A DNA stretch of 64,000 nt. It comes from an uncultured virus (IMG/VR IMGVR_UViG_3300042484_003076). Its lineage: Duplodnaviria > Heunggongvirae > Uroviricota > Caudoviricetes. This document shows, in pieces, positions 8,039-64,000 of this stretch. A model generated the notes under the pieces. It had not been told where the DNA came from, searched no databases, and saw nothing but the letters and a program-made list of their open reading frames with translations. The stretch lies in the IMG/VR virus record IMGVR_UViG_3300042484_003076; one strand, given 5' to 3'. The position numbers and the translations under genes were made by a program. The first letter of the stretch is position 1, and each line of letters opens with the position of its first letter.

Positions 8039-8040
8039 GA

Positions 8041-8080
8041 CAAAAAAAGCAGCCGATCAATTGATCGGCTGCTTTTTTTG
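8041..8080. terminator. Intrinsic terminator (perfect 40-bp palindrome)
   Basis: CAAAAAAAGCAGCCGATCAA/TTGATCGGCTGCTTTTTTTG. Confidence 0.85.
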
Positions 8081-9479: not shown

Positions 9480-9591
9480 ACGAAAGTGCAGGGATCGAAC
9501 CTGCGATAGTTAGCCACGTTGAGGGGTTTCCGCTTACGCTAACTCTTGGTACTCCTCCCCTACCAATGCAAAGCCATTTTGCTTACTCTCG
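9480..9591 (-). ncRNA. tRNA-like RNA with non-canonical anticodon loop and very long variable arm
   Basis: Acceptor CGAGAGT/ACTTTCG, D arm GCAA/TTGC, TTGGT/ACCAA stem, T arm GCAGG-TTCGATC-CCTGC; TTGCAA...TATGAT upstream. Confidence 0.65.
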
Positions 9592-21468: not shown

Positions 21469-21470
21469 GT

Positions 21471-21689
21471 ATGGAAGAAGGTAAATCAATAGAGATAAAA
21501 ATCGTCATAGCCCCTAGCAAGTTTGCTGAGTTAATTAAACTTATGCCAGATCATGCTAAGGGTAGAGGCGAAAAAACAAGGGTTATCTATTGGTTTATCG
21601 ATGAAGGAATGAGGGCAACTCTAGCCAAATCACAGCAAGAGCCACGCCCGAATTATGGCAGTAATCGAGATTATTTAAGGAGAAGCTAA
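21471..21689 (+). CDS. Putative ribbon-helix-helix regulator
   Basis: Beta strand IEIKIVI followed by two helices, 72 aa. Confidence 0.45.
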   Translation: MEEGKSIEIKIVIAPSKFAELIKLMPDHAKGRGEKTRVIYWFIDEGMRATLAKSQQEPRPNYGSNRDYLRRS

Positions 21690-21959
21690 ATGCCAAATTT
21701 ATACCTAGTAAAACCAATTGAATCGCATGAGTCAGAGTCCTATGCTCGTTATCTTGGCTTTGTGATTTGCGCTGATAGCGAGGATGAAGCTAAGGATCTA
21801 TCGTTTGAGCCTAGCTATCAATACGGAAATGATGAAAGGTTAGATCGCGGGAATTGGGTTCCAGAAGGAGCTAAACATTTACTTACTGTTAAGTATTTGG
21901 GAATCGCTGATAGCAGTATTGAAAAAGGTAAAATTCTACAAGAATATATAACTGATTAA
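21690..21959 (+). CDS. Conserved-type phage hypothetical protein
   Basis: LYLV...GFVICADSEDEAK motif. Confidence 0.6.
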   Translation: MPNLYLVKPIESHESESYARYLGFVICADSEDEAKDLSFEPSYQYGNDERLDRGNWVPEGAKHLLTVKYLGIADSSIEKGKILQEYITD

Positions 21960-22043
21960 CAAAAAATGATCGCCATCCAATTAACTCAGGACAGCGATCG
22001 CATTCAAGACATAGTAAAGGAGTAAACACGCGGGTAAGCGAAT

Positions 22044-22943
22044 CTACTCTCGCATTGTATCATTATTGAGATTGATAAAAAATGCTCCTTCAATTTCAAT
22101 ATTAAAGCATTTTTCTCCGCAACTTAAAACGGCTCTCAAACACCTGAAAATATAATCACCCGAAGTAATTGTAAACGGGTTAGATCCTGCAATAAAAATA
22201 CTCTGTAAGCGTTGTAAATCATTTTTGATGTAAGCGCACAGAGTAATATTTTCTTGTCGTTCATCCGCTTTAATCACCGCCTTGTAAGCAGTGATTGATT
22301 GCTTAGATGCTCTCATTTCAAACTCAGAAACAGTGCAGCCAATCCCATCAATACTTAGAGAGCCGTCTTTACTCATTAAGTGCTTTGGGTTTCCGTTATT
22401 ATCGAAAGATGTTGATTGTAATGTAACTGCCATGTTCTTACCTTGCGTTTTGCAAATATTCTAATCTAATCAATTTCCGAGCATTCTCAAAATTAACCCG
22501 CTGCTTATTGTCTCTCACCTCACGCGATTCCGCTGGTTTCTCAACAGGCTTTTGTTGCACTGTGATAATTTGTTGCACGCCTTTACCAGCTAAGTGATCG
22601 AGGTTGTAGACTACGCCGCGCCATTCGATAAAGTTGGCGGGATAGTTGAGAGGTTCAATAGCGATCGCGGGGGCTGGGATTGCGAAAAGTAGGATGGGGA
22701 GTAGGTATTTTTTCATGGGTTTGTTTTATTTGGTTTAATTCCAATTGTCCTGATTTCTGCGTTTCCTTTGGCCCAGTACCAAGCATTGACCCAATTTTTA
22801 ATATGTATTTGCACGAATCTAACTCCATTTATTGATTGAGTTAGAACTTCATTTATTTGCGCTGATGGATAGACTCTTGCAAAATTTAAAGCCGTAACCC
22901 ATTCAGGACGAGTATGCCTTATTCGTCTTAGTTTCCTTTTCAT
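22044..22943 (-). CDS. Three small hypothetical ORFs (22044-22433; 22438-22716 with signal peptide; 22713-22943)
   Basis: Coupled ORFs; MKKYLLPILLFAIPAPAIA signal peptide. Confidence 0.5.
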
Positions 22944-27308: not shown

Positions 27309-27485
27309 GGCCAATTAGATCGGGAATAGCAGCGCTCTTGGATTTTATGTTAAATTAAATATGCGATCGCGCATAGAGCAGATCAAGTGTTGGTGCAAGC
27401 CCAAAGGTTTAGGGTGTGGATAGTCGCCTTGTAATCGTGCCGCCTAAAAGTCTCGTCCTCCTTGTCCTAAACGCGATCGCTTTAA

Positions 27486-27603
27486 CCGAGAGTAGCTCTA
27501 AGTGGATAGAGCATCGTGAAGGTTCTGATGTCATATAAGTAGCTCTTATACTGACTAAATGGCTTGTAAGCGAAGGTTATAGGTTCAAATCCTATCTCTT
27601 GGA
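27486..27603 (+). ncRNA. tRNA-like RNA with a roughly 40-nt insertion in the anticodon arm
   Basis: Acceptor CCGAGAG/CTCTTGG, TA-GCTC..TGG..GAGC D arm, ATAGG-TTCAAAT-CCTAT T arm. Confidence 0.7.
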
Positions 27604-32560: not shown

Positions 32561-33019
32561 ATGAACACCAGCCAAATCGCACAAATCGCAACCGCTTTAA
32601 ACGTCTCTCCCAACCAAATCAAGAGAGCTGAGGAATGGAAGAATGTCCTTTTTGTTGTAGTTCAAGGTAAGGGCGCTCGTTTTGTATCTAAGAAGGTAAT
32701 TAAGGAGATGAACATTGAGATGAACATTAATCAATTCAGCCAAGAGGTTAATCAAGCTTTTGGGAATATTTTTTCTGTGAAAACCGATTTTTATGGAAAC
32801 ACACAAGATTTTATTGCATTAGACTTACAGAATAACGGCGAATATCATCGCTCCATAAAATTTACTTGTGAAGAAGGGTTGTCGCGGTATGGGATGTGGA
32901 AGGTTGAAGAAGGCTGTTTTAATGGCTACGGGAAAACTTTAAACGATGCGATCTCACAAGTTCGTAAAATGACATCCGATTGCACTACAAAAGCTTTTTT
33001 GATGCCAACTTATGCCTAG
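32561..33019 (+). CDS. Hypothetical protein upstream of csf1
   Basis: 152 aa; N-terminal module shared with 25252..25416. Confidence 0.65.
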   Translation: MNTSQIAQIATALNVSPNQIKRAEEWKNVLFVVVQGKGARFVSKKVIKEMNIEMNINQFSQEVNQAFGNIFSVKTDFYGNTQDFIALDLQNNGEYHRSIKFTCEEGLSRYGMWKVEEGCFNGYGKTLNDAISQVRKMTSDCTTKAFLMPTYA

Positions 33020-33078
33020 AGTCGGCAACCACGGACATTGAATAAACTTAATTAGCCATCCATAGGGTGGCTTTTGCC

Positions 33079-33756
33079 ATGAATAATAATAATTACTGCT
33101 ACCTTTGCGCCGCCCCTAACGCTCATAAACCGTTAGTTCTCAAAGATTCATTCACTGCACATAGTAGCGCTAGATGCCCTGAGTCTAAGTATTTATGCGA
33201 TCGCTGTGCATGGGTGATTCCGTTAAGGGCTTTTTATTGGAATGAAGCGAAGGGAAAATACAGCACATTATTTGCTAGGGGCTGGTCATGGCTCCTTTCT
33301 GCTGATGATGCGTATGGTTCTTATCCTAAATTTGGTAATCAACATACTGAGGGGGGGAACACGCTAGAAATAGTTGATCGCCTCCCCACACGCGCTCAAA
33401 TCAGGACTTGGTTGCTTGATCCGCCAAAGCCGCCCTTTACTATTTGCATTGCGGAATCAGGGCAAAAACATATTTTGCCTTGGGCGTTAGAGGCAACTAA
33501 TCGCGATTATTTCCCAGTGCAATTTGAGCTTGATACGTTGCATATATATCGATCTGCTTTTACGCATTTACTCACACGATATGAAGAGCTTATGGCTATG
33601 GGATTCTCAAAAACCGAGATTAATAGTGGCAACTATCGCTCTGATAAATTAGCTAAGAGCATCAGTGAGTACGCAGCATGTGAGGCTGTGATCGCTGCTA
33701 AGCGTGGTAATCGCTTGCTAGATTTGGTTAGCTATGTTGCAAAAGTATCAGAGTAA
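33079..33756 (+). CDS. csf1: Type IV CRISPR-associated Csf1 (Cas8-like large subunit)
   Basis: CxxC..., F.......PES.YLCDRC, LLDPPKPPF.I.I..SGQKH...WA motifs; identical N-terminus survives as a remnant in the csf operon. Confidence 0.8.
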   Translation: MNNNNYCYLCAAPNAHKPLVLKDSFTAHSSARCPESKYLCDRCAWVIPLRAFYWNEAKGKYSTLFARGWSWLLSADDAYGSYPKFGNQHTEGGNTLEIVDRLPTRAQIRTWLLDPPKPPFTICIAESGQKHILPWALEATNRDYFPVQFELDTLHIYRSAFTHLLTRYEELMAMGFSKTEINSGNYRSDKLAKSISEYAACEAVIAAKRGNRLLDLVSYVAKVSE

Positions 33757-46015: not shown

Positions 46016-47746
46016 ATGCCAGTACTACAAAAAAATCTACCTTTATTGCATACGCCTACGTTTCAGCAGATGAGTTCGCTACCTCCAGCGGCTGCAACGG
46101 TTGCAAACGCATTTGTTGCTAACGATCCTACAGGGCGATCGCCATTTGTGCTGTACGTTGTATCTGCTACGGTGCAATATTTATATACAGATAATGGATG
46201 GATTCAAATTCCTTCAGGGGCATTAGCGACTTTTGGGGCTGGAGCTTGTGCGGTATATCACCCATGGAGTAATACCTACACGGCAAACGGTGGAAGCACA
46301 ACAACAGCAACAGTAGCGGCGGGTACGCATAATATTACTGGCTTAGCGCTTGGCGAGACAATTGAGTTTGTTGTTAGTGGCACTAACAACGGATTGCGTC
46401 GCACAATCACAGGCGTAATTAATAACGCGGGTACAGGCACAATTACAATCCAATGGTCGGGCGCTGTTGCAACGGCTGTATTAAACACTCACACGTTTAG
46501 GATTAGCACAGGCAGATTCTTTGTCTATGGCGGTGGTGCAACCACGGCGGGATCGTTTAAATCCTTTGATGTTGCTACTATGTCTTGGTCTGGGAACTTA
46601 ATAGTAACAGGCGTTCCAACTTTTACCAATGACGGGCGTATGGCGTTAATGTATCAGCGACCTAAAAGCTTTCAATCAGGGCTTGCGACGGCTGTTACAA
46701 ACACGACTAACGCGACTATATCGGACAATACAAAAAGCTGGAAAGTAAATCAATGGATTGGCTATTGGGTAAGGATTACCTCAGGGGCGGGTTCGCCTAA
46801 TGGCAGTACAGGGGCGATCAATCCGTTACTTCAGATCACTAGTAATACAGCTACAACGCTTACTCTATCAGGTGTTTTTGCAACAACTCCTCCCGATACA
46901 ACTTCTTCATATTCAATAGAAGACATACTTGCTTCTGGAGTTGCGACTTCTGGCAGTACAACAACGTTGGTTAACTCAACTAAATCAGGCGGATCGGCTT
47001 GGACTGCTAACCAATGGACTAACTCTCGCGCAAGAATCACGGGAGGGACAGGGCTAGGGCAAACATCAATTATTGCTAGCAATACAGGCGACACCCTAAC
47101 TATCGGTACTGTCGGCACTGCGATCGCGTCGGGGTCTATTTATGAGATTGAAGGTGACGAAAACTTTATCTATTTGGCTGGTAATGCTGCTGTTGCCATG
47201 TACAAATACTCAATTTCGGCGGGTACTTGGGCAACAGTAGCGCCAACAACCGCAAGAACGACAGCGCTAGGGGCTTCTCCAAGCTTGAACGCCGCTTACC
47301 ATACAGGCTGTCCAAATTGGAGTAGTGAACCAGCGATTTTAAACGGTCGTTACCTTTATTCTTTTAGGGGCGCTGCTTCTGGGGTTGTGGATCGCTTTGA
47401 TATAGCTGGAGGTACGGCTGGGGCTGGGGCGTGGGCTGTAGTTACTACAGTGAACGCCGAAACATTTACCACAGGCGCAAGCTTTGGTATCTGGAAGGGT
47501 AAAATATACATCAGGAAAGAGTCGGCATCAGGTGTGGCGCAAAGGTTTTTTTACTATGATGTCGTTAAAAACGCACTGCTACCTTTTACCACACTAAATT
47601 ACCCAGATGGCGCGGCGTTAGCTGGGACTAAGATCTGGGTAAAAACGTTTGACCAGAACCAAACCGATGCCGATGCCGATGCCGTAAATTGGCTTTACAC
47701 GCTACAATCGACAGGCAATGCTTTACACAGAATTATGCTTTTTTAG
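46016..47746 (+). CDS. Putative fibre/receptor-binding protein
   Basis: 576 aa, Thr/Gly/Ala-rich, repeated W..NQW....RIT.G.G module, propeller-like C-terminus. Confidence 0.7.
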   Translation: MPVLQKNLPLLHTPTFQQMSSLPPAAATVANAFVANDPTGRSPFVLYVVSATVQYLYTDNGWIQIPSGALATFGAGACAVYHPWSNTYTANGGSTTTATVAAGTHNITGLALGETIEFVVSGTNNGLRRTITGVINNAGTGTITIQWSGAVATAVLNTHTFRISTGRFFVYGGGATTAGSFKSFDVATMSWSGNLIVTGVPTFTNDGRMALMYQRPKSFQSGLATAVTNTTNATISDNTKSWKVNQWIGYWVRITSGAGSPNGSTGAINPLLQITSNTATTLTLSGVFATTPPDTTSSYSIEDILASGVATSGSTTTLVNSTKSGGSAWTANQWTNSRARITGGTGLGQTSIIASNTGDTLTIGTVGTAIASGSIYEIEGDENFIYLAGNAAVAMYKYSISAGTWATVAPTTARTTALGASPSLNAAYHTGCPNWSSEPAILNGRYLYSFRGAASGVVDRFDIAGGTAGAGAWAVVTTVNAETFTTGASFGIWKGKIYIRKESASGVAQRFFYYDVVKNALLPFTTLNYPDGAALAGTKIWVKTFDQNQTDADADAVNWLYTLQSTGNALHRIMLF

Positions 47747-47755
47747 GAGAAAACA

Positions 47756-48223
47756 ATGGCTAGCAAAGCAACGAAAATACAAGGTGTTGATTCAACTACA
47801 TTTAATCTCACGATCAATCAATTTGATGAAGCGCTGCAAACAAATGTTCAGCGCTTGAGCCAAAACATTCCGCAAGCTGATTACTCAGTACATTTTACTG
47901 ACGGAACAACCGTTAGAGCGCGGTACGACAGCAATCTATCGCGATGGGACATTTCACTAGTAAGAAGTTTGACACTCACTAGTGAAAATTGTATTTTCTT
48001 GACGGATCCCGAAAATCCCAATAGCGATTCATACTTTGAATACGATTGGGAATATCCAGCGCTGATTACTTCGCCATTTTACAGTGAACTCATCGTTGAA
48101 TGGATCCGCGACAATGTCGTCGTAAATGGCGTAACTAATCAAGTTAGCGTCAATTATATTCAAGAAGGCGCTTATAGAGCCTTCACTAATCTTAGCGAAC
48201 AACTCTACTGGATTCACCCTTAA
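47756..48223 (+). CDS. Hypothetical virion-region protein
   Basis: AGGAG RBS; last gene of late operon. Confidence 0.55.
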   Translation: MASKATKIQGVDSTTFNLTINQFDEALQTNVQRLSQNIPQADYSVHFTDGTTVRARYDSNLSRWDISLVRSLTLTSENCIFLTDPENPNSDSYFEYDWEYPALITSPFYSELIVEWIRDNVVVNGVTNQVSVNYIQEGAYRAFTNLSEQLYWIHP

Positions 48224-48405
48224 CCCTTACCAAAAGCCCGTCATGTCTGGCGGTACTGGTGCAGGATCAAGAATACTGAAATAAGCCCGCCTATTTCAAT
48301 AAAAATGACAGTACAAACTGATTAAAGAGAACTACCCTTTGGTGATTTCCTTATCAACTGAGCTGGGCTTAAATGTTAGCGAGATTTTTGATATTGCGAT
48401 CGCAA

Positions 48406-49281
48406 TTAAATAAAGCTTAGTTGTACTTGTTTGCTTGGCATTTTAGCGATCGCCTGTAAGTCTGCGCGGATATTCTTCGAGCGATCGCATATCCATAATT
48501 TTTCGGTACGTTTTGTATCGTGCTTAGTCCGCGATCGCCCATTTGATGCGGACATAGTTGTCTCTATCTCTACGCATTTTTGCGCTGATTTGGGCGCGAT
48601 ATCATGATGATAGTTACTCAGTACATAGCTAGATTCGCTAGCGTCAAGAGCATCACATAAAGCTTGATAATCGTCTAAAGTATAACCGACATAATGCCCT
48701 TGATTAGTGTCAGGGTAGGGCGGATCAACATACGCAACCGTATGGCTACTGTCAAAGCGCTTAACAAAGCTCAAAGCATCTTCACAGCCAATATACACAT
48801 CCTTTAAGCGCTCAAAACATTCTGGCAATCTAGCGGCGCGATTTACCCATGTTGCTGCTTTGCTTTCATTAATTACTTGCGCCGCCCATCCGCATCCAAT
48901 TTGACTAGCAAAACTCATATTGCATTCAATATAAGTAGCCCAAGCAACTTTAAGATCGCTGTACTCAGATGGATTGTTATAGATTTTTCGCGCTTCACGA
49001 TGCTCTTCTTGGCTGTAAGGAGTGAGTTCTATCCATCGTGCTAATTCGTTAGGTTGCTCTCTTGCCACGCGCCAGAACGTGATTAATTGCTTGTTCAGGT
49101 CATTGATTGCTTCGCGGTAATAGCCTTTATTACCGCGATCTATTTTGCCTTTGGCATAGAGTACAGCGCCGCCTCCAAAGAACGGTTCTACGTAAACGGT
49201 GTGCGGTATCGCCATAATGTGAGGCACTATCTGAGAGGCGATACGACTTTTGCCCCCATAATAAGAACAGGGTGTTTTCAT
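48406..49281 (-). CDS. DNA adenine methyltransferase (Dam/D12 class)
   Basis: YYGGKS, YVEPFFGGGAV, INDLN, YVDPPY. Confidence 0.92.
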   Translation of the reverse strand: MKTPCSYYGGKSRIASQIVPHIMAIPHTVYVEPFFGGGAVLYAKGKIDRGNKGYYREAINDLNKQLITFWRVAREQPNELARWIELTPYSQEEHREARKIYNNPSEYSDLKVAWATYIECNMSFASQIGCGWAAQVINESKAATWVNRAARLPECFERLKDVYIGCEDALSFVKRFDSSHTVAYVDPPYPDTNQGHYVGYTLDDYQALCDALDASESSYVLSNYHHDIAPKSAQKCVEIETTMSASNGRSRTKHDTKRTEKLWICDRSKNIRADLQAIAKMPSKQVQLSFI

Positions 49282-49829
49282 ATAGTTATAGATACATTGC
49301 CAAGATGCCCACAGCAAGCCTTAAACTTTTTAGCTGTGAACTTACCAAAATAGAATAAAGTCTGGCTTGTGTCATTGCCAGATTTTTTCTTTTTGCCATC
49401 GTTCTTAGGGTTTGTGAACTCAAGCCGATGATTAAAAGTTAGATAGCAAACAGAATAATTTTGAGCGTCTAGAAACCAATTAGAGCTTGTATTAGAGTTA
49501 GTCAGTAAGAAGGTATTACCTATGTGAGCATAGGTTAAAACCATCTCTACAGCCCTTTCGATGTTCCCTTTGGAGTAAGGTGGGTTAACCCACTTATTAA
49601 GATAAGGAGTCCAATCCTTACTAAATGCGTCATCAGCTTTAGTCCAAAAGGTTTGAGCTTGGATGATTTGATTTGCTCTTAAGCAAGAAAATGGATCAAG
49701 ATGGAAGCCTTTAACTAATTCTCGAAATGGTTCCACAACGTAACGCGCTGTATAGTTCTCATCGTTCGACTCATCCTCATTTGTAAGAACACAATCTAGA
49801 GTAAATAGGTTTTCTTGTATTGCGATCAT
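49278..49829 (-). CDS. Phage N6-adenine methyltransferase
   Basis: FHLDPFSC..AN, DAFSKDW, WVNPPYS. Confidence 0.85.
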   Translation of the reverse strand: MIAIQENLFTLDCVLTNEDESNDENYTARYVVEPFRELVKGFHLDPFSCLRANQIIQAQTFWTKADDAFSKDWTPYLNKWVNPPYSKGNIERAVEMVLTYAHIGNTFLLTNSNTSSNWFLDAQNYSVCYLTFNHRLEFTNPKNDGKKKKSGNDTSQTLFYFGKFTAKKFKACCGHLGNVSITI

Positions 49830-50002
49830 TACAACCCTCCTAAAAACTCATTTTTAGCAATCTTGACCATCAATGCTTGCTGCCCCAAATACAGCAGATG
49901 TAGCTCAATGAGTAGCTGCTTAGCTGAGTCAATGTCAATGTTTTGGATTTGTTGGCAGAATAGAGCGTGAGTAAACGCTTTTTCGGGCGGTAGGTCATTC
50001 AT
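49829..50002 (-). CDS. nblA: NblA-like phycobilisome degradation protein (57 aa, not in ORF track)
   Basis: LPPEKAF....FCQQIQNIDIDSAKQLLIELHLLY..QQALM..IAK matches the NblA pattern; ATGA and TAATG overlaps with both neighbours. Confidence 0.65.
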   Translation of the reverse strand: MNDLPPEKAFTHALFCQQIQNIDIDSAKQLLIELHLLYLGQQALMVKIAKNEFLGGL

Positions 50003-50754
50003 GGCAATTCACTCCATACTTTCCCATCCAATTCAGGCAATGAAATCTTTTTACCATTGACTGCCCTTTGTTTATAAAAGAAAGCCTTGTTAGCAGCTTT
50101 GACCTCATCCCGCAGCGATCGCACCCAGTCTTCATCCATCGGTCTAGCACCTTTGCCAGATTCAGCGCCGACGATCGCGAGGTCAATGTATTGGGCATAA
50201 GCGCCGATATAAACTTCTTCTAGTAGTGGCTCAAAACTGACAAAAGTATTGCCTCCAAGCTGTTTAATTGCAGCGATCGTATCAAGGCGTTTCAACGCCG
50301 TGCCTTGGCTCTCAACCGAAACGCCTAACCATATATTGCTAGGGAGAAAGGGAAAACCAGATCTAGCACACCAATCATTTACAACTTGCAAAAGGGTGTC
50401 AGCACGTTTGGACAAGAGCATAAACGTCTGATTGTGAGAGAAAGCCATAGCTTGAATCATCTCTAATTGCCACTCTCTAGGAATCCAATCACCGCACCAA
50501 TCTGTCATAGAGCAAACAAAATGACGTTTAGGCGATCGTATTCTCGCCCACTTAACAAGCATTTCGTAGTTAAGCTCTAGCTCTGGCGCTTTGCCTGTAT
50601 AGGTCAATCCACTAGCAAAGTCAAAGCGATTACCTGTATTAATTGCTTCAGCATAGCAGTTGGCGCATCCTTCCGATATTTTCCTACACCAATGACCACC
50701 GCCTTTGACGGTGATTGGGTTATCAGTTACATCAGTCCATTCAATTTTACTCAT
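49999..50754 (-). CDS. Phage Gp37/Gp68 (DUF5131) family protein
   Basis: SKIEWTD, C.KIS.GCANCYA, FVCSMTD, NIWLGVSVE, FVSFEPLL, VGAESG..ARPM. Confidence 0.92.
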   Translation of the reverse strand: MSKIEWTDVTDNPITVKGGGHWCRKISEGCANCYAEAINTGNRFDFASGLTYTGKAPELELNYEMLVKWARIRSPKRHFVCSMTDWCGDWIPREWQLEMIQAMAFSHNQTFMLLSKRADTLLQVVNDWCARSGFPFLPSNIWLGVSVESQGTALKRLDTIAAIKQLGGNTFVSFEPLLEEVYIGAYAQYIDLAIVGAESGKGARPMDEDWVRSLRDEVKAANKAFFYKQRAVNGKKISLPELDGKVWSELP

Positions 50755-52130: not shown

Positions 52131-52223
52131 TATCTCTCTCCAAATAATTTAATAATGCGATCGCACCTACCCTTGATCGCGTGAATGTGGCTTCCAGTAG
52201 GGATAGGGTATAAGAATTAGTTG

Positions 52224-52682
52224 TTAGCCATCGCCATAGCCACAACCATCGCCACAACCATCGCCACAACCATCACCACAACCATCGCCAGAGCCATCGC
52301 CAGAACCACAACCATAACCAGAGCCATCACCAAAGCCAAAGCCAGAGCCAAAGCCAGAGCCATCACCATAGCCATAGCCAAAGCCAGTATTTAGATCTTC
52401 CATACAGCAACCTCCGCGATTGAATCTATTGTGATGTATTCTGGAATCATTTACACCCTCTCAATCATCGCCATAGCCATAACCATAGCCATAACCATCG
52501 CCATCGCCAGAGCCAGAGCCAAAGCCAAAGCCAAAGCCAGAGCCACAACCAAAGCCAGAGCCAGAGCCAGAGCCAGAGCCATCGCCATCGCCAAAGTCAA
52601 AGCCAGAGCCAGAGCCAGAGCCATCACCATCGCCAAAGTCAAAGCCAGAGCCAAAGCCATAATCAGTATTTAGATCTTCCAT
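52224..52682 (-). repeat. Two Gly-X hexamer repeat tracts (ORFs MEDLNT(GX)n at 52461-52682 and about 52224-52403)
   Basis: GGY-KNT hexamers; 43-bp direct repeat at 52385-52427 and 52664-52706. Confidence 0.85.
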
Positions 52683-52963
52683 ACAGCAACCTCCGCGATT
52701 GAATCTTTCGCGATTTCTGTCACTGACAGAATTTCAATCACTTCGGTGACTATGATTCTGTCAACTTCCGCAGGAAATTTGCAATTACTAGGATCACTAG
52801 TTCCTGTTTGAGCTAGCTGAGAAAGGGATGCTGCCCCTGCCCATTTCCATAAACGCCGAGCGTTGCGTATTGTTGCTTGCTTACCTTCAAAAGCTTCAAG
52901 AAATCCCGCGAATACACCCGCGCTGTAAGTTCGCACAATTACATATTGATCAATCATTGCCAT
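52670..52963 (-). CDS. Conserved phage protein (DUF6948-like)
   Basis: VIVRTYSAGVFAG.L......NARRLW.W.GAASLSQLA..G. Confidence 0.75.
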   Translation of the reverse strand: MAMIDQYVIVRTYSAGVFAGFLEAFEGKQATIRNARRLWKWAGAASLSQLAQTGTSDPSNCKFPAEVDRIIVTEVIEILSVTEIAKDSIAEVAVWKI

Positions 52964-53218: not shown

Positions 53219-54382
53219 CTATGACAGAATATCGCGATACCGTAGCAGACTGCACTCGTTGTCAGGGGCGGCTTTGCGGAACTCTAATCCGTAAGCGCTG
53301 TAATCGAATCTGTGGGTTTTCCTAAAGGTATTCCTAGCAAATGGACATCCTCTAGATATTGCAAGCTGATAAGCCATCTCTAGCGTCATCCATTCGTTCT
53401 CAAATTCTGTTGCTTGCACCCGTGAGAAGAAAGAAATCTCATGATGATCACGATTGTAGCGATGGATTTCCCCTGCTACAGAGCGATTGTAAAAAAGTTT
53501 GGATAATTTTCTTAGCTCAATATTCTCGCCTAGCAGCTCGTTCAGCTTGTAAGCAATTGTTACAGCATCCTGCCATTTATCGGTAAGCACTGAGTTAATC
53601 TGCTCAGTCGAGATAATCCGTTTAGCGACTCCCTTGGCTTTGTCTGATTCAACTTTCTTGCGGGTGCGTGTGCGTTTTGGATTACTCCAATCAAGTAGCA
53701 ATTTAGAAACATCAGGGTGCATCCTATACCGTTTTTTGAGCGATGGTAGATACACTTTTAGGCTTGCATATTCACCGCCGCTAGCCTTATATGCAAGCAA
53801 AGCTTTTATACGCTGACCATCGGGGCGATCGCGGATCGGTGGTTTTTGTCGTGGGCATAACGGGGCACTGTAGGCAAAAAAGCTGTATAGATTCAGGATT
53901 GATAGCAAACCACTCAAACAAGGCTTTAAACACGCAAAAACATATAAGTACGTTGGTGATTTGCGATCTGTTAATCTTTCGCGGTTACGAATCCGCTTAC
54001 GTTGCTTTTTGGCTTTCGGCTTTGCAACATTCTTGGGCGGCTTTGTCTTTGGGCGATCGCTTTTCGGTTTTGGCGGTGGAGCTGCGATCGCCTCTAACTC
54101 TGGTTCTGGTCTAGCTTTTGGCGGTTGTAATTTTGGCTCGTCACCAATATGCAAAACGTTGCGATCTAATAGCGACTGCCATAGGCTGGACCACTGATTT
54201 TTATACACCAAATACCGAGCTACGAATAACGCATTAGTGGCAATAGCGCGATCATCTTTGAGCTTGCGCCTTTGCTCATGCGCTGCGATCGCACTTAGGA
54301 TCGGCGCAACTTGTCGCCATATTGCGGGGCTGGTATCAGGGGATGGGATCGAGGGGATGCAAATGGGTAGGGATGGTTTCAT
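53219..54382 (-). CDS. Basic Pro/Lys-rich hypothetical protein, probably DNA-binding
   Basis: 387-aa ORF. Confidence 0.5.
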   Translation of the reverse strand: MKPSLPICIPSIPSPDTSPAIWRQVAPILSAIAAHEQRRKLKDDRAIATNALFVARYLVYKNQWSSLWQSLLDRNVLHIGDEPKLQPPKARPEPELEAIAAPPPKPKSDRPKTKPPKNVAKPKAKKQRKRIRNRERLTDRKSPTYLYVFACLKPCLSGLLSILNLYSFFAYSAPLCPRQKPPIRDRPDGQRIKALLAYKASGGEYASLKVYLPSLKKRYRMHPDVSKLLLDWSNPKRTRTRKKVESDKAKGVAKRIISTEQINSVLTDKWQDAVTIAYKLNELLGENIELRKLSKLFYNRSVAGEIHRYNRDHHEISFFSRVQATEFENEWMTLEMAYQLAISRGCPFARNTFRKTHRFDYSAYGLEFRKAAPDNECSLLRYRDILS

Positions 54383-54406: not shown

Positions 54407-55294
54407 TTAATCCGTACAATGACAAGGCGCATGATCGTAAACGTCTAGCAATGGCTGAGCAAGAATATTTTTTAAAGGGCGATTACCAAATGTATGCCCT
54501 GTCTTCTCTTCTTGCTCTAACCACCATTGCAAGTTTTCAGGCTCTAGCTCCGCTTGCCTTTGCTGCTCAATATCGCGATGGTGAAAGCAAAAGCGACAAT
54601 TAGAAATTTCTGGAAATTGCCAGCCTTTGTCTAACCAATACTTAGCAACATCAAGTTTAGAAATACCATGCTCGTGCATAGGGAATTGAGTAACGCGCCA
54701 TTCAACCAAGCTGTGCTGTTGTTGTTTTCTGCCAGTGAGTGAGCAGCTTTTAGGAAACTTAAATTTATCTTTGTCGCAAGTCCATCCCTCTACTCTTTGC
54801 GGTTCGTCCCACCTAAAACCCACGTTCATTAATAGAGGTGTTTCGCCATCAAAGTAATTTAGATAGCAATGCCAGAACATAGGGACTAATTTAGTTTCTA
54901 CAGTACAAAACCTATGTTTTGCATTTGGGAGCATTTTCTTTTTCTCAACGATCGCATCTAAAGGTTCTTTAGATGCGATCGTGTTGCTTCTATATCCCAC
55001 CAGATCGGTATCTTTGGCAAGATACCGATCTAAACTGTATTGGCTTGCTACCCAGTCAATACGCCGCCCTAGCTCTTGTTCTAATCGCAGCATATTAAGC
55101 AAAGTTAGATCGGCTTCATGGCTGGCTACAAACCAAGGGATACGATTTTGACACTCACGCAATAAGCCTTTATCCTTTGGCGCGGATGGCTGATGATCTG
55201 TAAGCACTACAGCAAAAATGTAGTGATCTGTCGGAAACTCTAAAGCCATCATTGCCGATGTTTTGCCGCCTGATACGCTGGTTACTGATTTCAT
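54407..55294 (-). CDS. PAPS-reductase-family (PP-loop) protein
   Basis: SVSGGKTSA, RFCT.E.K..P, VGFRWDE..R, FP, SNC.FC. Confidence 0.85.
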   Translation of the reverse strand: MKSVTSVSGGKTSAMMALEFPTDHYIFAVVLTDHQPSAPKDKGLLRECQNRIPWFVASHEADLTLLNMLRLEQELGRRIDWVASQYSLDRYLAKDTDLVGYRSNTIASKEPLDAIVEKKKMLPNAKHRFCTVETKLVPMFWHCYLNYFDGETPLLMNVGFRWDEPQRVEGWTCDKDKFKFPKSCSLTGRKQQQHSLVEWRVTQFPMHEHGISKLDVAKYWLDKGWQFPEISNCRFCFHHRDIEQQRQAELEPENLQWWLEQEEKTGHTFGNRPLKNILAQPLLDVYDHAPCHCTD

Positions 55295-55339: not shown

Positions 55340-55426
55340 TAGGATCGGCGCAACTTGTCGCCATATTTCGGGGCTGGTGCCAGGGGATGGGATAGCGGAG
55401 ATGCAGATGGGTAGGGATGGTTTCAT
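55340..55426 (-). pseudogene. Diverged duplicate of the first ~29 codons of 53219..54382
   Basis: MKPSLPICISAIPSPGTSPEIWRQVAPIL vs MKPSLPICIPSIPSPDTSPAIWRQVAPIL. Confidence 0.8.
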
Positions 55427-59338: not shown

Positions 59339-59653
59339 TCAACTCTTGCCCTGCTCTAATTTCCGTTCAACCTTTGCAACGACTTGCCTGATGTTCTCAG
59401 GATCGCGCCCTAGCTTTTCGGCTGTTGCGATGACCTTGCGATCGCACTCGATCCAAGTTGTGTATATCTCCCATTGCAAGGGAGTAATCCCAAAATGCTT
59501 AAGCACAATTGCTTGGATTGACTGCGATGCGTTGTCACCAATAGCGGCGATCGCATCTCCTAAGATTGGGCTAAAACAGTAGGAATATGTCTTAGCCTTT
59601 ATTTCGGGCGGTTTCTTAGGTCTACCGCCTCCATGGTTGCCTCCTCTAGGCAT
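59339..59653 (-). CDS. Putative regulator (AT-hook-like GGRPKK and C-terminal HTH)
   Basis: GGNHGGGRPKK; ATAEKLGRDPENIRQVVAKV. Confidence 0.6.
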   Translation of the reverse strand: MPRGGNHGGGRPKKPPEIKAKTYSYCFSPILGDAIAAIGDNASQSIQAIVLKHFGITPLQWEIYTTWIECDRKVIATAEKLGRDPENIRQVVAKVERKLEQGKS

Positions 59654-60320
59654 CTACTTTCCAATCGTAATCAAATTCAGCGTAAGCTTCATTAAATCCT
59701 CTAACAGTTGGATAAAATTCATCCCCTGTTAGAGGATTCAAAACGATGGCAGATCCATCAGACATAAAATGAACTGTCAATGGGATATTGCCATCCGATG
59801 GATAGTGATCAGCGATCCACACTTCTTGGATAGTAACCCTTTCCTTTAAAAACTCCCATTCATAAGCTGACAAGGCATCATCTGTGCCTATTTTTAGAAG
59901 CACTTCAATATTAAAGCGCTCCCTGATCAGAGGGGTTTCCTCTATCCCCTCAATGTATGTCTCGTCAACCCAGTCAGACGAGGCGGGATCTAGCTTGTTG
60001 TTTCCGAACTCGTCTTTCCAGCATTTAACAGTTGTGGAGATTGCTTTTTCCAAGAGTTGACTCAGTGTAGCGTCAACTCCCGAAAGAATTGGAGCTACAT
60101 GAAAGGACAATTCCATGCAGCTTTCTTGCCAATCTTCAAACGCTTCGACGGGCTCAATCCCGTGATCCTCTAACAAAGCAAGGAGTTGATATACCCCCTC
60201 CTCGTTGATAGTACAGGGAATATTGGAGATCTTCAGACCATCCTCATCAACAAAAATATCTGTTGATACAAACCCTTCGTGGTCTTCGCCGCATTTAAGA
60301 TCAAGATTACCTAGTAGCAT
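59646..60320 (-). CDS. Highly acidic hypothetical protein, first gene of cassette
   Basis: 224 aa, D/E-rich, directly after promoter 60331-60393. Confidence 0.65.
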   Translation of the reverse strand: MLLGNLDLKCGEDHEGFVSTDIFVDEDGLKISNIPCTINEEGVYQLLALLEDHGIEPVEAFEDWQESCMELSFHVAPILSGVDATLSQLLEKAISTTVKCWKDEFGNNKLDPASSDWVDETYIEGIEETPLIRERFNIEVLLKIGTDDALSAYEWEFLKERVTIQEVWIADHYPSDGNIPLTVHFMSDGSAIVLNPLTGDEFYPTVRGFNEAYAEFDYDWKVDA

Positions 60321-60330: not shown

Positions 60331-60393
60331 CTTTGTTTAACTCAATAACCTATTATTGATCGACCTATAGGTTTTGTCAATAGCAAAACCAAA
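60331..60393 (-). promoter_or_regulatory. Promoter, inverted copy of 32495-32558
   Basis: Direct sequence comparison. Confidence 0.85.
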
Positions 60394-60497
60394 CTATTTT
60401 TATAGACACAAAAAAAAGCCGTCGCGAGTGCAACGACTGGGGGATGCGAAGTAGTCACTCTATTTTAAGCGATCGCTCCGCCGAGTGATTTTGTTAT

Positions 60498-61079
60498 TTA
60501 TTCAAAAAACCCGCATCCTAGATGTTTGCGACCTCCCAACCCTTTCTCTTGTAATATTAAAGACTCGTTAGAGCGCAAATCTGAAAACATTACAGGGTAT
60601 ACAGCACACGGTTGCTTTTTAATAATTAGCTGCTCCTTGCGCCCTATTGTTGGCAGTGTATTAATATCAAACTTTGCTAGTTGCTTACCTAGCGACACCG
60701 CAAACCTAGTAAGATCGGGTTCACGATTGTTGTCGGTTTTAATTGATACCCAAGCCGCTAGATTCTCTTGAGATTTTAGCTCTGTGCCATTAACCAGCTT
60801 GAGTTTAATCAACTCTTTGCCTAAATGGATTTGACAATCAAAAAGCATCGTTAGCTCTGTAATTAAATCTTTGGAGCAACGTAGCTTTATGGTGTTTTGA
60901 GTTAAACGTAATGTGCGATCGTCAAAAATATTTGTGTTACTGATTCTACCGATCGCCCACTCAGGGTTATCTTTGAGCTTAGGAGCTAATCCCGTCAAGG
61001 CAGAATAGAGACAGTAATGGTAGTTTCTAGGGATTAAAGAGCCTTCAATACTGAAAAGAAATTCTACGAAGTTACTCAC
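60498..61079 (-). CDS. cas6: Cas6 family endoribonuclease
   Basis: N-terminal F.I.G..IP.NYHY.LYSAL and C-terminal S..LQEKGLGGRKHLGCGFF G-rich loop. Confidence 0.88.
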   Translation of the reverse strand: MSNFVEFLFSIEGSLIPRNYHYCLYSALTGLAPKLKDNPEWAIGRISNTNIFDDRTLRLTQNTIKLRCSKDLITELTMLFDCQIHLGKELIKLKLVNGTELKSQENLAAWVSIKTDNNREPDLTRFAVSLGKQLAKFDINTLPTIGRKEQLIIKKQPCAVYPVMFSDLRSNESLILQEKGLGGRKHLGCGFFE

Positions 61080-61128
61080 GTTCTTTTATTCCTTTGGTAT
61101 TTGTGTATTTCTTCAATTCCGCATGACT

Positions 61129-61157
61129 TTCTTAGATCGTTCTTAGATCGTTCTTAG
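61129..61157. repeat. 11-bp tandem repeat (TTCTTAGATCG, about 2.6 copies) upstream of cas6
   Basis: Direct reading. Confidence 0.85.
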
Positions 61158-61369
61158 GGATATCTCATGTATCGGCGCACAAAAAAGCCGTTGCCACTGT
61201 GACGGTTTTTGATAATGGTAAAATAATAGACTAGCCGAAGAATTTAAGCGTAACGATTAAATACTAAATAAGCGTCGCCTACCTTTGTTGGAGAGAAGCA
61301 GACAGGCGATCGCGAAGTGTGTTGTAAAGAAAAGCTTCTCCGCTTTATTTTAGCACTGCCAAAAGGATA

Positions 61370-61435
61370 GCTAGCATCTTTAAGGACTAATGCTTCAAAA
61401 CCGTTAGGGGCGGCGCAAAGGTAGCAGTTATTCAT
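61370..61435 (-). pseudogene. csf1: csf1 N-terminal remnant
   Basis: MNNCYLCAAPNGFEALVLKD; 27 bp identical to 33095-33121; unrelated sequence follows. Confidence 0.8.
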
Positions 61436-61787
61436 TGATAATCACCAATCTTTTCTCACTATCTACGGGTTGATGTTTGTTGGCAACGGATAGCAAAAAA
61501 AGCCCGTCATTTCCAGCCCTTACCCTGTGAGGTTGCGAACCGTCTATAAAGTAGCAGGTTCCCTTGACGATTGGTTCGGTTTCAGCGCCGCAATCAATCC
61601 ATCCAGACCCCTCTACTCCAAACAAAATATGATCACCCTCATGGGTATGAAGAGAAGTTTTTTCATTAGGTGCAAAATTCAACATATCAGCAGCAAAGCC
61701 GTCTTTTTTTACCAGTGGCAATCCGACAGCTTGACTGCCATACATCTGATACCAGTAATCAGCATCTAAATAATTTTTAATTTGCAT
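61428..61787 (-). CDS. Cupin-domain protein within csf operon
   Basis: HTHEGDH....EG.G and PH.V.AG cupin metal-binding motifs. Confidence 0.85.
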   Translation of the reverse strand: MQIKNYLDADYWYQMYGSQAVGLPLVKKDGFAADMLNFAPNEKTSLHTHEGDHILFGVEGSGWIDCGAETEPIVKGTCYFIDGSQPHRVRAGNDGLFLLSVANKHQPVDSEKRLVIINE

Positions 61788-62445
61788 ACAATAATCCTTT
61801 TAGGTATTCAAAATATTCTGGCGAAATCTTGCGAAACTCTTCTAATCTTGTAGCTTGATATTGATTGTTAGTATTTTTGCTGACATGATCTGTAGTTCGT
61901 TTTGCGCCTAAATCATAGGCTTTTAGGTATGGCAATTCATGAAAAAAGGTATAAGCCCAAATATCGTTTTCACTCCAATTAAAAACAGGGCAAGCGCGAT
62001 AATCTCCTTTTTTATATTGATAGATAGCACCATTTTTTAGCAAGGTTGCTTTACGTTTTGCGCTTTCTTCTATCCGCAATCCAACAAAAGCGACAGGATA
62101 ATCAATCCATAATTTTTGTGACTTAACTTTGTTAGGGACATGATCGCCTTGCATCAAAATAGTTTGAATGTTTAGCCCAAATTTGTCCTGATATTTTGAT
62201 TCTGTTTCAGCATAATTACTAATCATTTCTCTTTCATAATGTCCAAAAGAAATAGCCAAAATATTAGGACAAATCGACTGCACCAAATGAAGCATTACGA
62301 CTGAATCTTTACCCCATGACACCGCAACATAAGAAGGAGCGATCGCTAAAGCCTCTCGAATAATCTCTTTAGCTTTCTCAACTTTGCGCTTAAATGTTGG
62401 CAGTGTCGCATGAGCTAAAAATGCATCGCGTTCTATTCCCTCCAT
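61777..62445 (-). CDS. CysH-like (PAPS reductase family) protein of type IV-B loci
   Basis: VAVSWGKDSVVM, FVGLRIEES..R, CPVFNWS..DIWAY. Confidence 0.88.
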   Translation of the reverse strand: MEGIERDAFLAHATLPTFKRKVEKAKEIIREALAIAPSYVAVSWGKDSVVMLHLVQSICPNILAISFGHYEREMISNYAETESKYQDKFGLNIQTILMQGDHVPNKVKSQKLWIDYPVAFVGLRIEESAKRKATLLKNGAIYQYKKGDYRACPVFNWSENDIWAYTFFHELPYLKAYDLGAKRTTDHVSKNTNNQYQATRLEEFRKISPEYFEYLKGLLYAN

Positions 62446-63119
62446 ACGTTATCCGTTGGCATATAGCACATAGATTTATTCGCCGCTAACCATGTAGGAG
62501 GTCTCCACCCCCAGTTCATCATATTGATAGATTGAGGCTGTGGAATCATATTAATTGGCATTGGTCGGGCTAAACTTTCACCTCTCCACAAATGCCAATC
62601 ATGTTCAAAAGGAAGTACTTCCCATTTGTGTACCTGTCCGCAACCTTGCGATCGCTTCTTGCCAAGGTTCGTAACATTTAGAATTAGTTCGCTAATCTTG
62701 TCAGCATTGCCAATCGCAAACCAGTGTATAGTCTGCATTTCGCGATCATATCGTGGTAAATCATAGGCTTTAAAATGCCCTTGCGAACTATCAACCTTAG
62801 CTTTCTTTTTACCCCAATCAAGGTGTAGTTCTTGCTTGTCCCATCGCTTACGGTAACGCTGAGTTTGTTGATGATTTTCGATGTAATGTGGTGAACTCAC
62901 GGCCCAATACCACTCGCCTTTAAGCGTCTTCCGAGCGATCGGCATTTCATCAAAAATCAAGGGCAGATTCTTTTCAGCATCCGCAGCCGTTGGATTAGGC
63001 GTGATTAGCCCTAATTGGTCTAACAATTGATACTCAATCAGAGCATCGAAGCTAGGGGACCAGTCATCATAGGCAACTAGCGGCGTTGCCATGTGTGCGA
63101 TTATTTGGAGGTTATCCAT
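62433..63119 (-). CDS. csf3: Type IV CRISPR-associated Csf3 (Cas5 group)
   Basis: L.I.AHMATP, FDALI, G.FKAY.LP, WFAIG, LGKKRSQGCGQV..WEV, RPMP, RPP.W. Confidence 0.85.
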   Translation of the reverse strand: MDNLQIIAHMATPLVAYDDWSPSFDALIEYQLLDQLGLITPNPTAADAEKNLPLIFDEMPIARKTLKGEWYWAVSSPHYIENHQQTQRYRKRWDKQELHLDWGKKKAKVDSSQGHFKAYDLPRYDREMQTIHWFAIGNADKISELILNVTNLGKKRSQGCGQVHKWEVLPFEHDWHLWRGESLARPMPINMIPQPQSINMMNWGWRPPTWLAANKSMCYMPTDNVWRE

Positions 63120-64000
63120 TCAATAAACTCCGAATATCGCTCTTAGAATCAGCTAGAAAGCCTTTGTAATCTTCGAGATATTCTTTATACCTTGCGTGAG
63201 ATTCAGTAGCGCGATCGCTTAATTTCTGAGCATGAGGTGTAATCGTCATAAACTCACCGCGATCGCCCTCCGCAGTCTCAAACCAGAATTGCATAGAACA
63301 TAGTCCGCAACCCGTTCCTGATTGACCGCCTAAGTATGGCGATTCAGCGAACTTGAGTAATGCATCTGCAATAAATCCTTCTTCGATTCTGGTGACGTTT
63401 GCGCTCCAATAAGAGTACAAAGTAGCACCTGTTTGGAGTAGCCAATTACCCATAATCATCTGTTGGCTTTTCTCTTTTTCGGGCTTTGCTTTTTCGCTTT
63501 TACCTTTCTTGGTTTCAGGCTCCGAAACTATACCAAATAGATCGCATTGAGAAATCATCTTTTGAGGTTCTGGAGTAGCGCCGATCAAATGTTTTGCAAA
63601 GTTAGGATCGTGAAGTGAATCGCGCCTTGTCTTTTGGCTATAGGTAAGCCAATCGGAATAATATCGAAGCTTCTCACCTAAGAATGGCATCCATTCATCA
63701 AGCAAAGCCTTGAGATCGTAATTGCTAACATCCAAAGGAGAACCATGATGTAGCCATTGATTCACTCGTTGACTATGCTGTAAGTCTTTGCCATCAATAA
63801 TCTGCTCCAGTGCTGGTATGACTTCGATTGGCAACGCAGGGGGGAACATCTGATAAAGATACTTAGCGCTTTCTACACAAGCCAAATAAGCATCACCAAC
63901 AGCGATTCGACCGTGCACCATTTGAGCATCGGATACACCAAACAATCCTTTAGGTTTGGCAGTTCCTAACACTGAAAGGCATGGCAAAAGTTGCCTAATC
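63112..64000 (-). CDS. csf2: Type IV CRISPR-associated Csf2 (Cas7 group), 5' end outside window
   Basis: P.LSVLG, GRI.VG.A...C.E, TRRD, SQQMI......G, LGGQSGTGCG; frame open to the window edge. Confidence 0.85.
   Translation of the reverse strand, partial: IRQLLPCLSVLGTAKPKGLFGVSDAQMVHGRIAVGDAYLACVESAKYLYQMFPPALPIEVIPALEQIIDGKDLQHSQRVNQWLHHGSPLDVSNYDLKALLDEWMPFLGEKLRYYSDWLTYSQKTRRDSLHDPNFAKHLIGATPEPQKMISQCDLFGIVSEPETKKGKSEKAKPEKEKSQQMIMGNWLLQTGATLYSYWSANVTRIEEGFIADALLKFAESPYLGGQSGTGCGLCSMQFWFETAEGDRGEFMTITPHAQKLSDRATESHARYKEYLEDYKGFLADSKSDIRSLLNG

Follow-up and report, generated by a model that had tools for sequence, protein, structure and literature searches.

Among the widespread CRISPR-Cas subtypes, IV-B is the one for which the literature searched gives neither the RNA nor a function, and the 2025 classification still lists it without arrays and nucleases (PMC12669027). 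According to the portions available of PMC7937560, PMC8175902, PMC10541130, PMC10989515 and Pinilla-Redondo 2020, to which all citations of these sources below refer, the IV-B complex is a Cas7-Cas11 filament on RNA (PMC7937560, PMC8175902), and CasCysH has been proposed to modify the ligands of the complex as an ATP alpha-hydrolase, or else to carry out adenylyl transfer (PMC8175902). Type IV systems have also been seen in lytic phages, and a IV-B system with a mini-array in archaeal viruses (PMC10541130). The system considered here lies at the end of a 64,000-nt stretch of DNA from an uncultured tailed virus (Caudoviricetes; IMG/VR record IMGVR_UViG_3300042484_003076), the whole of which is called the window in the following. 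Judged from its sequence, the module is a phage-borne variant of subtype IV-B, and it is read here, with a probability of about 40%, as a device that would use Cas6 to load foreign repeat RNA onto a Csf complex carrying a swappable enzyme.

Six minus-strand open reading frames (ORFs) lie between 64000 and 60498, and the first five of them overlap successively by 8, 13, 11 and 8 nt, followed by a 164-nt gap before cas6. Together with an intact csf1 elsewhere in the window, the genes of the module (lengths in amino acids, aa) are the following.

63112-63999, minus strand: csf2 (Cas7), the C-terminal 295 codons, with the start beyond the window end; PADLOC Csf2_0_IV 4.1e-20.
62433-63119, minus strand: csf3 (Cas5), 228 aa; PADLOC Csf3_0_IV 2.9e-46.
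61777-62445, minus strand: cysH-like gene (PAPS-reductase family), 222 aa, overlapping the csf3 stop by 13 nt; Pfam PAPS_reduct 7.2e-17.
61428-61787, minus strand: cupin, 119 aa, its start overlapping the cysH stop by 11 nt; Pfam Cupin_2 2e-8.
61244-61435, minus strand: remnant of the csf1 5' end, 63 codons, about 26 of them alike to csf1 and the rest unrelated, at the ancestral csf1 position.
60498-61079, minus strand: cas6 of the Cmx6 family, 193 aa, GTG start; Pfam PF09559 1.3e-32, PADLOC Cas6 1.1e-34.
33067-33756, plus strand: intact csf1 for the Cas8-like large subunit (229 aa), encoded opposite to the operon at a distance of 27 kb; PADLOC Csf1_0_IV 3.1e-27.

A preliminary description of this DNA, made from its letters, had proposed a phage-borne type IV-B-like effector operon with a cupin and a Cas6 as unusual partners, and this proposal stands: Csf2, Csf3, the CysH-like protein, the cupin and Cas6 are each supported by hidden Markov models, PADLOC places the respective proteins in Csf2, Csf3 and Cas6, and both partners are real, the cupin by its Pfam match and Cas6 by a NCBIfam score above the cut-off (cas6_cmx6, TIGR02807: 103.5 bits against 98.85, with residues 3-192 on model positions 2-195 of 197). 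A search of the ESM Atlas agrees with the Cmx6 family. Csf2 and Csf3 are distant members of their families, because Pfam has no match to either and the NCBIfam score of the window Csf2 is low (cas7_csf2 merely 0.029, 13.6 bits, far below the cut-off); Csf3 reaches 2.2e-16 with cas5_csf3, yet 60 bits against a cut-off of 140. Over residues 109-401, the window Csf2 is 96.6% identical to that of the nearest record (G001), a virus genome of 80,032 bp that has direct terminal repeats, is rated 100% complete and aligns collinearly with the window in blocks that are 74-98% identical. The operon genes are intact, and their substitution pattern indicates that purifying selection is acting on them: the pairwise ratio of nonsynonymous to synonymous substitution rates (dN/dS by NG86; 47 computable pairs, every one below 1) is 0.13-0.66 for cas6, 0.06-0.24 for csf3, 0.10-0.15 for the cupin, 0.11-0.26 for cysH and 0.11-0.24 for csf1. 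Contigs from RNA libraries, all from a single study with two runs, map to cas6, to csf2, to the junction of csf3 with csf2 and to the start of cysH, a weak observation, as the libraries may contain DNA; none lies over the cupin or over most of cysH and csf3, and such a gap is uninformative.

Five gene families (csf1, cas11, csf2, csf3 and cysH-like; cas11 as seen in relatives of the phage) are common to the phage set and to subtype IV-B as represented by the complex of a Mycobacterium sp. JS623 plasmid (PMC7937560, PMC8175902). Both reside on mobile elements, both are devoid of an array, adaptation genes, a helicase and a nuclease, and in both the CysH-like protein keeps the PP-loop and has, by reading, no C-terminal tail with the catalytic cysteine. 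Unlike the JS623-type systems, the phage module has a Cmx6-family Cas6, a cupin, a distant csf1 and the order cas11-csf2-csf3-cysH, and its host range is cyanobacteria in place of Actinobacteria. The presence of the Cmx6-family cas6 is what makes the module a variant and not a typical IV-B member; in one Rhodococcus IV-B locus that was inspected, neither a cupin nor a cas6 is found within 5 kb. Cas6 together with IV-B is rare but in print: the text of Pinilla-Redondo 2020 speaks of '12 instances', and Supplementary Data S1 of that paper has 10 putative Cas6 rows, none of which, by reading, contains the C-terminal motif of the phage Cas6; the word Cyanobacteria was not found in the supplement. 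With type IV-A (csf1-3, the Cas6-like Csf5, DinG and an array) the phage module has in common the type IV core and a repeat endonuclease, but it has no DinG, no array and another Cas6 family, the cysH-like gene is present, and cas11 is seen in relatives. Archaeal viruses of the Fuxiviridae likewise carry a IV-B system with a CysH-like gene beside csf3, but there a two-repeat mini-array is at the locus, the host is an archaeon, and the available part of the description mentions no Cas6 (PMC10541130). The module extends IV-B to cyanophages, and the literature search returned no paper joining type IV-B and cyanophages and no functional IV-B study. New in comparison to these systems are the Cas6 insertion, the split csf1, the cupin as a conserved member that is shared with the Gloeobacter plasmid described next, and the link to the sulfonamide synthase SbzM treated below; no function follows from them.

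In PLSDB, Csf3 has 73 matching records, chiefly from Rhodococcus and other Actinobacteria at 25-28% identity, and the best match is plasmid pGMOR1 of Gloeobacter morelensis. The IV-B locus of this plasmid (NZ_CP063846.1, about 77.4-82.9 kb) contains cas11, csf2, cas6, csf3, a PAPS-reductase-family gene, the cupin and csf1, of which the RefSeq annotation names just cas6, the reductase and the cupin. The identities to the phage set are 40% (cas11), 41% (csf2), 36.5% (csf3), 46% (cupin), 45% (csf1) and 21.5% (the Cmx6-type cas6), and the PAPS-reductase-family gene is 41% identical to the window form and 34% to the G001 form. Plasmid and phage have the order cas11-csf2-csf3-cysH-cupin-csf1 and a Cmx6-type cas6 in common, and no array is found within 9 kb of the plasmid locus; they differ in that the plasmid cas6 lies between csf2 and csf3, that csf1 still stands right after the cupin, and in the carrier, the plasmid bearing type IV secretion genes and a CyRepA1 replication gene. 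The position of its csf1 implies that csf1 once stood where the window has the remnant, and the set as a whole implies that the cupin belongs to the conserved genes of this IV-B branch, as a third enzyme common to phage and a distant plasmid locus, so that cupin and Cas6 are recurrent partners and not accidents. By sequence comparison, a Cmx6-type Cas6 would have joined IV-B loci either twice or long ago. A second PAPS-reductase-family gene of pGMOR1 lies between two DNA methyltransferases.

Viral relatives were collected by searching IMG/VR with Csf3, which gave 22 loci, 81-100% identical, in which reference proteins were mapped and ORFs in the gaps were read. A cas6 is present in 11 of them (L007, L008, L010, L012-L016, L022, L025, L028), and four others end before the point at which cas6 would be reached (L009, L011, L023, L024). 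The preliminary description had pointed to the DNA beyond position 64000, and this can be supplied from the relatives: cas11 and the start of csf2 are found there, and no dinG, cas1 or adjacent array. The closest locus, L007, is 97.9% identical to the window over 3481 nt, has the same layout of cupin, remnant and cas6, and continues with csf2, cas11, a 114-aa gene and an ATPase. The operon of G001 consists of cas11 (PADLOC Cas11_2_IV 9.7e-13) directly upstream of csf2 (401 aa, 4.1e-44), a GIY-YIG gene, csf3, the cysH-like gene, a 196-aa protein in the cupin's place and cas6, and upstream of cas11 there are a 114-aa gene, an AAA_28 ATPase and a dCTP deaminase, and neither dinG nor an array. Altogether, cas11 is found upstream of csf2 in 16 of the 17 related loci with an intact csf2 and upstream DNA; L012 is cut inside csf2. 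The earlier suggestion of a survey of co-occurrence is answered by the same loci, as both cupin and cas6 accompany csf2, csf3 and cysH in 5 of the 11 cas6 loci, and the whole set is also on pGMOR1. Homing-endonuclease-type genes (GIY-YIG 2.9e-5, T5orf172 2.4e-6), absent from the window, have been inserted exactly between csf2 and csf3 in some relatives (G001, L006:13429-13806; L021:6448-7008; L026:6174-7004).

The absence of an array, cas1/cas2 and dinG from the window, as first described, could be confirmed: none of cas1, cas2, cas3, cas10 and dinG is among its 78 ORFs by PADLOC, and TRF, a repeat search and k-mer scans give no CRISPR array. Cas1 (PF01867) and Csf4/DinG (TIGR03117) are also absent from 5/5 related virus records, four of them at least 90% complete. 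That the window end truncates an ordinary type IV-A locus here, or else that the operon is a decaying relic without function, is highly improbable. The idea of a relic can draw on the csf1 remnant and on two clearly decayed loci (L026 and L027; G004 20716-22290), in which the last 119 Csf2 residues run on into the beginning of the 114-aa gene that lies upstream, Csf3 is cut at residue 132, and just the last 20 residues of Csf1 remain, elsewhere; it is contradicted by the intact ORFs, by dN/dS well below 1 and by the intact csf1 in trans. A IV-A locus is contradicted by the missing Csf4/DinG and Cas1 and by the presence of cas11 and cysH in G001.

The small ORF behind the cupin had been described earlier as a csf1 remnant, and this is correct inasmuch as it matches the N-terminus of true Csf1 (tblastn 53% over 34 aa, E 2.9e-4) and its DNA the start of the G001 csf1 (82% over 57 nt), while Pfam, NCBIfam and PADLOC give no family match for its 63 codons; the system is nevertheless not devoid of csf1, as the intact gene is found at 33067-33756. 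Its product is 96% identical to the G001 Csf1 (239 aa; PADLOC 1.2e-26), and csf1 is likewise kept in trans in G001 and G002. The same remnant occurs in L007 and a frameshifted copy in L025, and one DNA contig of run X10 joins 61066 to 61424, which is a form without the remnant. Directly upstream of csf1 is a gene for a 152-aa protein without family match (32561-33019, plus strand). Its first ~60 residues recur with other C-termini beside IV-B genes in G001, G002, L017, L018 and L020, and in L020 this part sits between csf2 and csf3.

Arrays do occur in some relatives, where they accompany a different gene. The array of G004 consists of seven repeats of 37 nt, separated by spacers of 34-40 nt, and that of G002 of five such repeats with different spacers; neither the complete G001 nor G003 has an array. 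The genes next to these arrays are the following.

G004 L048:11252-13400 and G002 46614-48643 (minus strand): Cas12f/TnpB-like gene with array, 558 aa, just after the tape-measure gene.

The 558-aa protein has OrfB_IS605 (1.9e-18) and Cas12f1-like TNB (2.4e-13) domains, and as the arrays directly follow this gene they look like a small type V-like system. On pGMOR1, 60 kb from the IV-B locus, an annotated transposase at 140572-142790 is 29% identical to the phage Cas12-like protein (E 1e-32) and is followed by seven 36-nt repeats. The IV-B module could in principle use the arrays of such a system, possibly located in the ~16 kb of phage outside the window, as both G002, with its intact operon including cas6 and cupin plus a five-repeat array, and pGMOR1 have the two together. 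This is very unlikely, however, since the arrays are located 3' of the Cas12-like gene and not of csf genes, G004 keeps its array though its IV-B locus is decayed and cas6 absent, G001 and G003 have IV-B without any array, and the syntenic slot in the window (12.4-14.6 kb) holds another gene. The co-residence of IV-B and Cas12-like genes in two unrelated carriers is noteworthy, but the pattern of presence and absence speaks against dependence. The G002 and G004 spacers have no protospacer in the phage genomes compared here, and the G004 array has no match in GenBank phages or PLSDB. The ORF in the window slot (12710-14200, plus strand, 496 aa) has a weak CoiA-nuclease-like match (1.2e-4) and lies in an AT-rich stretch (GC 0.36).

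The phage Cas6 is a putative repeat endonuclease whose glycine-rich C-terminal loop is conserved. On plasmids, the Cmx6-type Cas6 gave five matches, all of them cyanobacterial (Synechocystis PCC 6714 pSYLB, Nostoc CENA543, Cylindrospermopsis, Gloeothece and Nostoc MS1) and all five with arrays, and the three that were inspected have type I-MYXAN systems with 36-nt repeats. The Cas6/Cmx6 of these systems is of the same family as the phage protein, but it is encoded with cas3, cmx8, cas7, cas5, cas4/1, cas2 and 36-nt-repeat arrays, of which the phage has none. A motif derived from the 36-nt repeats has no match in the window with up to 3 mismatches and no exact match in the phage loci, and an alignment of the spacer downstream of cas6, examined for a conserved RNA, shows just a terminator, a 41-nt indel with a HIP1 element, and a promoter. 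A word-based protein search gave 10 Cas6 proteins with 54-97% identity, two scans of genome contigs confirmed no Cas6 relative in species genomes, and a metagenome scan gave five loci, each a close phage relative. The history of the insertion can be read to some extent from the start of the protein: in L022 and in P0005-P0007, Cas6 opens with the first ~14 residues of Csf1, and L022 is an intermediate with the whole csf1 two small genes downstream of the fused-start cas6. Because these Cas6 proteins start as Csf1, the simplest reading is that the cas6 cassette entered at the csf1 5' end and that csf1 parted from the operon later.

The family shared with type I-MYXAN also bears on another possible role, in which Cas6 and Csf would merely capture host crRNA or pre-crRNA and lock it away as an anti-CRISPR sponge, with no target sought. 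Such a sponge would fit the phage setting and the missing array and nuclease, and it is an idea already in print for IV-B (PMC8175902; Pinilla-Redondo 2020). It appears unlikely here, as it leaves unexplained the conserved, selected and swappable enzyme pair of the operon as well as the retention of the module on a conjugative-type plasmid, and the authors of Pinilla-Redondo 2020 themselves regard an anti-CRISPR of such complexity as unlikely.

The first of the paired enzymes is a member of the PAPS-reductase family, and by its motifs and scores it is not the CysH of sulfate assimilation. The PP-loop S-x-G-K-D-S is invariant in nine CysH-like sequences (S43, G45, K46, D47, S48), the same nine aligned sequences have, by reading, no cysteine in the C-terminal tail, and the scores with the models of true PAPS reductases remain far below the cut-offs (TIGR00434 47 bits against 165, TIGR02057 41 against 254). 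In the cupin, His47, His49, His53, His87 and His105 are invariant in 15 aligned sequences, and an AF2 model is a confident barrel (pLDDT 93.6). Its nearest solved relative in sequence and fold is the sulfonamide synthase SbzM (PDB 9ug7, a code under which no paper was found), with a profile E of 8e-17 against 4e-9 for the next chain, and a Foldseek match with E 7e-10, 33% identity and rmsd 1.1. SbzM, a homologue of cysteine dioxygenase, takes part in antibiotic synthesis, where its substrate for oxidation is free L-cysteine (PMC10989515). It differs from the phage cupin by its length of 215 aa with an extra N-terminal part, and at 31-33% identity a shared substrate is not implied; the likeness points towards sulfur or oxidative chemistry without amounting to a function. 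A complex prediction for the CysH-like protein and the cupin scored 0.00 in two runs without controls, which says nothing either way.

As sequence comparison of siblings shows, the rear two thirds of cysH and the next gene are swapped as a cassette. The identity of window and G001 is 94-97% in the flanks and is lost from 62234 (about cysH codon 70) to 61079 (cas6 start). The first ~62 CysH residues are nearly identical across the forms of the relatives termed group A, the remainder is 52-56% identical, and each rear part of CysH is paired with its own next gene. Among the 11 cas6 loci this next gene is the cupin in five, the 196-aa protein in two and its distant homologue in two (shortened in L025), while nothing follows in L013 and a methyltransferase-like gene in L022. 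The 196- and 258-aa cassette proteins match Pfam Coq4 just below the cut-off (6.4e-4 and 2.1e-4) and carry an H-D-x-x-H motif, then glutamate, which we take to be the Coq4 metal site. In the loci without cas6, the slot after cysH is empty or holds a weakly GT2-like gene plus a 158-aa protein without Pfam match; csf1 directly follows cysH in L019 and L021, and in L017 a DNA N6/N4 methyltransferase (Pfam 4.3e-8) occupies the place of cysH. Contigs from natural populations break or join at 62254 and 61424-61432, which are the same cassette borders. A second PAPS-reductase-like gene of the window, at 54407-55294 (minus strand; PHROG 424 6.3e-27, PADLOC SspD 4.6e-12, no Pfam match), is bracketed by 87-nt direct repeats that are 92% alike (54296-54382 and 55340-55426).

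The complex could also work without any guide, Csf coating non-CRISPR RNA, Cas6 trimming some phage or host RNA, and CysH and cupin doing small-molecule sulfur or nucleotide chemistry. The sole IV-B complex studied, that of JS623, bound heterogeneous RNA (PMC8175902), the nearest characterised cupin relative acts on a free amino acid (PMC10989515), and stand-alone PAPS-reductase-like genes are common in phages (PHROG), with the second copy just mentioned in this one. Such a division of labour is rather doubtful in view of the tight operon, whose overlapping stops and starts are kept from phage to Gloeobacter plasmid, and of the repeated recruitment of a CRISPR repeat endonuclease.

In the preferred reading, that of borrowed guides, Csf2, Cas11, Csf3 and Csf1 would build the usual Cas7-filament ribonucleoprotein on RNA, and Cas6 would cut transcripts that contain repeats and stem from another source in the infected cell, and hand them to the Csf complex. 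Since the phage encodes a repeat endonuclease and lacks repeats, the repeat RNA would be taken from elsewhere, most plausibly from host CRISPR arrays, for example those of type I-MYXAN with their Cas6 of the same family, or else from arrays of co-resident elements. The recruited endonuclease argues that, here at least, the complex is fed with repeat-derived RNA. The complex would then act on matching nucleic acid not by cutting but via the enzyme pair of the operon, that is the CysH-like protein, by adenylyl transfer or ATP alpha-hydrolysis, and the swappable metal enzyme (the cupin here; Coq4-like or none in siblings), and would thereby serve counter-defence or the phage's competition against other mobile elements. 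The pair is seen as the output because it is conserved and is replaced en bloc among siblings whose flanking DNA is 94-97% identical.

Several observations weigh against borrowed guides. The JS623 complex bound heterogeneous non-CRISPR RNA and not the co-expressed type I-E crRNA (PMC8175902). Five of the 22 loci have cas11-csf2-csf3-cysH-...-csf1 without cas6 (L017-L021), which implies that Cas6 is not needed for whatever the core does, and in the window a weak hairpin and the 164 nt stand between cas6 and the rest of the operon. At the usual position of the D-H pair of its family the phage Cas6 reads Y-H, and the protein is isolated in sequence: the closest representatives not of its own group that an exhaustive HMMER search gave are 52%, 45% and 36% identical to it, and the Cas6 of cyanobacterial plasmids 24-28%, so that its RNA target cannot be read from relatives. 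Compared with solved Cas7 chains, Csf2 is about equally distant from IV-A, IV-B and IV-C (E 0.0015-0.009), and as this search does not separate the three, the subtype assignment rests on gene content.

More speculatively, IV-B in general might be an RNA-guided delivery platform for chemistry on nucleic acids or nucleotides, with an exchangeable warhead; in phages with Cas6, guides stolen from host CRISPR transcripts would lead it to the phage's own protospacers, which would be shielded or chemically marked against host interference; the warhead would be the CysH-like protein with a metal enzyme (cupin, Coq4-like, or a glycosyltransferase-like plus HxD..H pair), or the DNA methyltransferase in one relative. 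This extended proposal is quite improbable as it stands. Independently of it, the natural siblings, 94-97% identical around the locus, differ just in the cassette, in cas6, in the place of csf1 or in the loss of the module, and are thus ready-made comparisons, natural variants for finding out what IV-B does.

That the carrier is a tailed phage of cyanobacteria, a cyanophage in the preliminary description, is borne out by PHROG matches in the window to terminase large subunit, portal, major head protein, scaffold, tape measure and primase/helicase, and by the octamer GCGATCGC, which occurs 73 times against 0.43 expected from base composition (seven control palindromes: 0). This octamer is the HIP1 element that characterises many cyanobacteria. 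The runs containing this stretch are lake-water metagenomes: in 18 DNA runs, 60% or more of the words sampled from the window are present, and one of these runs may be its source. Among GenBank phages (INPHARED, August 2025), there is no Csf2 or Cas6 relative and no DNA match, and Csf3-like genes are lone copies only, in two Cylindrospermopsis phages and one Skermania phage. The copies in the isolated cyanophages, Cylindrospermopsis phage Cr-LKS4 (OQ625504.1 50611-51324) and virus RM-2018a (MH636380.1), are annotated hypothetical, with 25% identity over 95% of the query (E 4e-23).

Around cas6 the window has the following further features.

61170-61215, minus strand: weak hairpin with T-run, 74% like the cas6 terminator, repeat family D20; not called by the terminator scan.
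60417-60438, minus strand: intrinsic terminator 3' of cas6, 9-pair stem and T-run, kept in group A relatives (11 downstream regions aligned).
60352-60380, minus strand: promoter-like site (11/12) of the next, separate transcription unit, with an acidic 224-aa gene and a 104-aa gene.

The upstream motif of the promoter-like site recurs at 25486 and 26118 (repeat family D8). The gene behind it, right after cas6 (59646-60320, minus strand), encodes a very acidic protein without family match and is conserved in most group A relatives, with other small genes instead in L010 and L014. The 41-nt stretch with a HIP1 core at 60455-60497, just 3' of the cas6 stop, is present in 7 of 10 aligned group A relatives and absent from three, and is a small indel, maybe a mobile hairpin.

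Two kinds of intergenic elements lie far from the operon. At 7829-8080 (plus strand), three tandem 51-nt units (7889-8041) are 94-100% alike and without spacers, preceded by a promoter-like site and a 25-nt leader and followed by a strong terminator; the element folds better than shuffles (z -3.9) and is likely a small non-coding RNA. It was considered as a Cas6 substrate and rejected as a conserved partner of the module, because it is absent from the syntenic site of G001 and IMG/VR contains no exact copy of it. T-arm-like sequences (GGTTCGATCC / GGTTCAAATCC type) are found near 9480-9560 (minus strand) and 27480-27600 (plus strand), with 83-85% partial conservation in G001; ARAGORN and Rfam called nothing on the window, including these sites. 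A further region, 48406-50754 (minus strand), has two genes for DNA methyltransferases together with a 251-aa gene that strongly matches the PADLOC candidate-defence models PDC-M41B/PDC-M30B (1.2e-49) and PHROG 2045, and 52215-52738 is a long run of 6-, 12- and 42-nt tandem repeats of the GCCATAGCC type in up to 33 copies.

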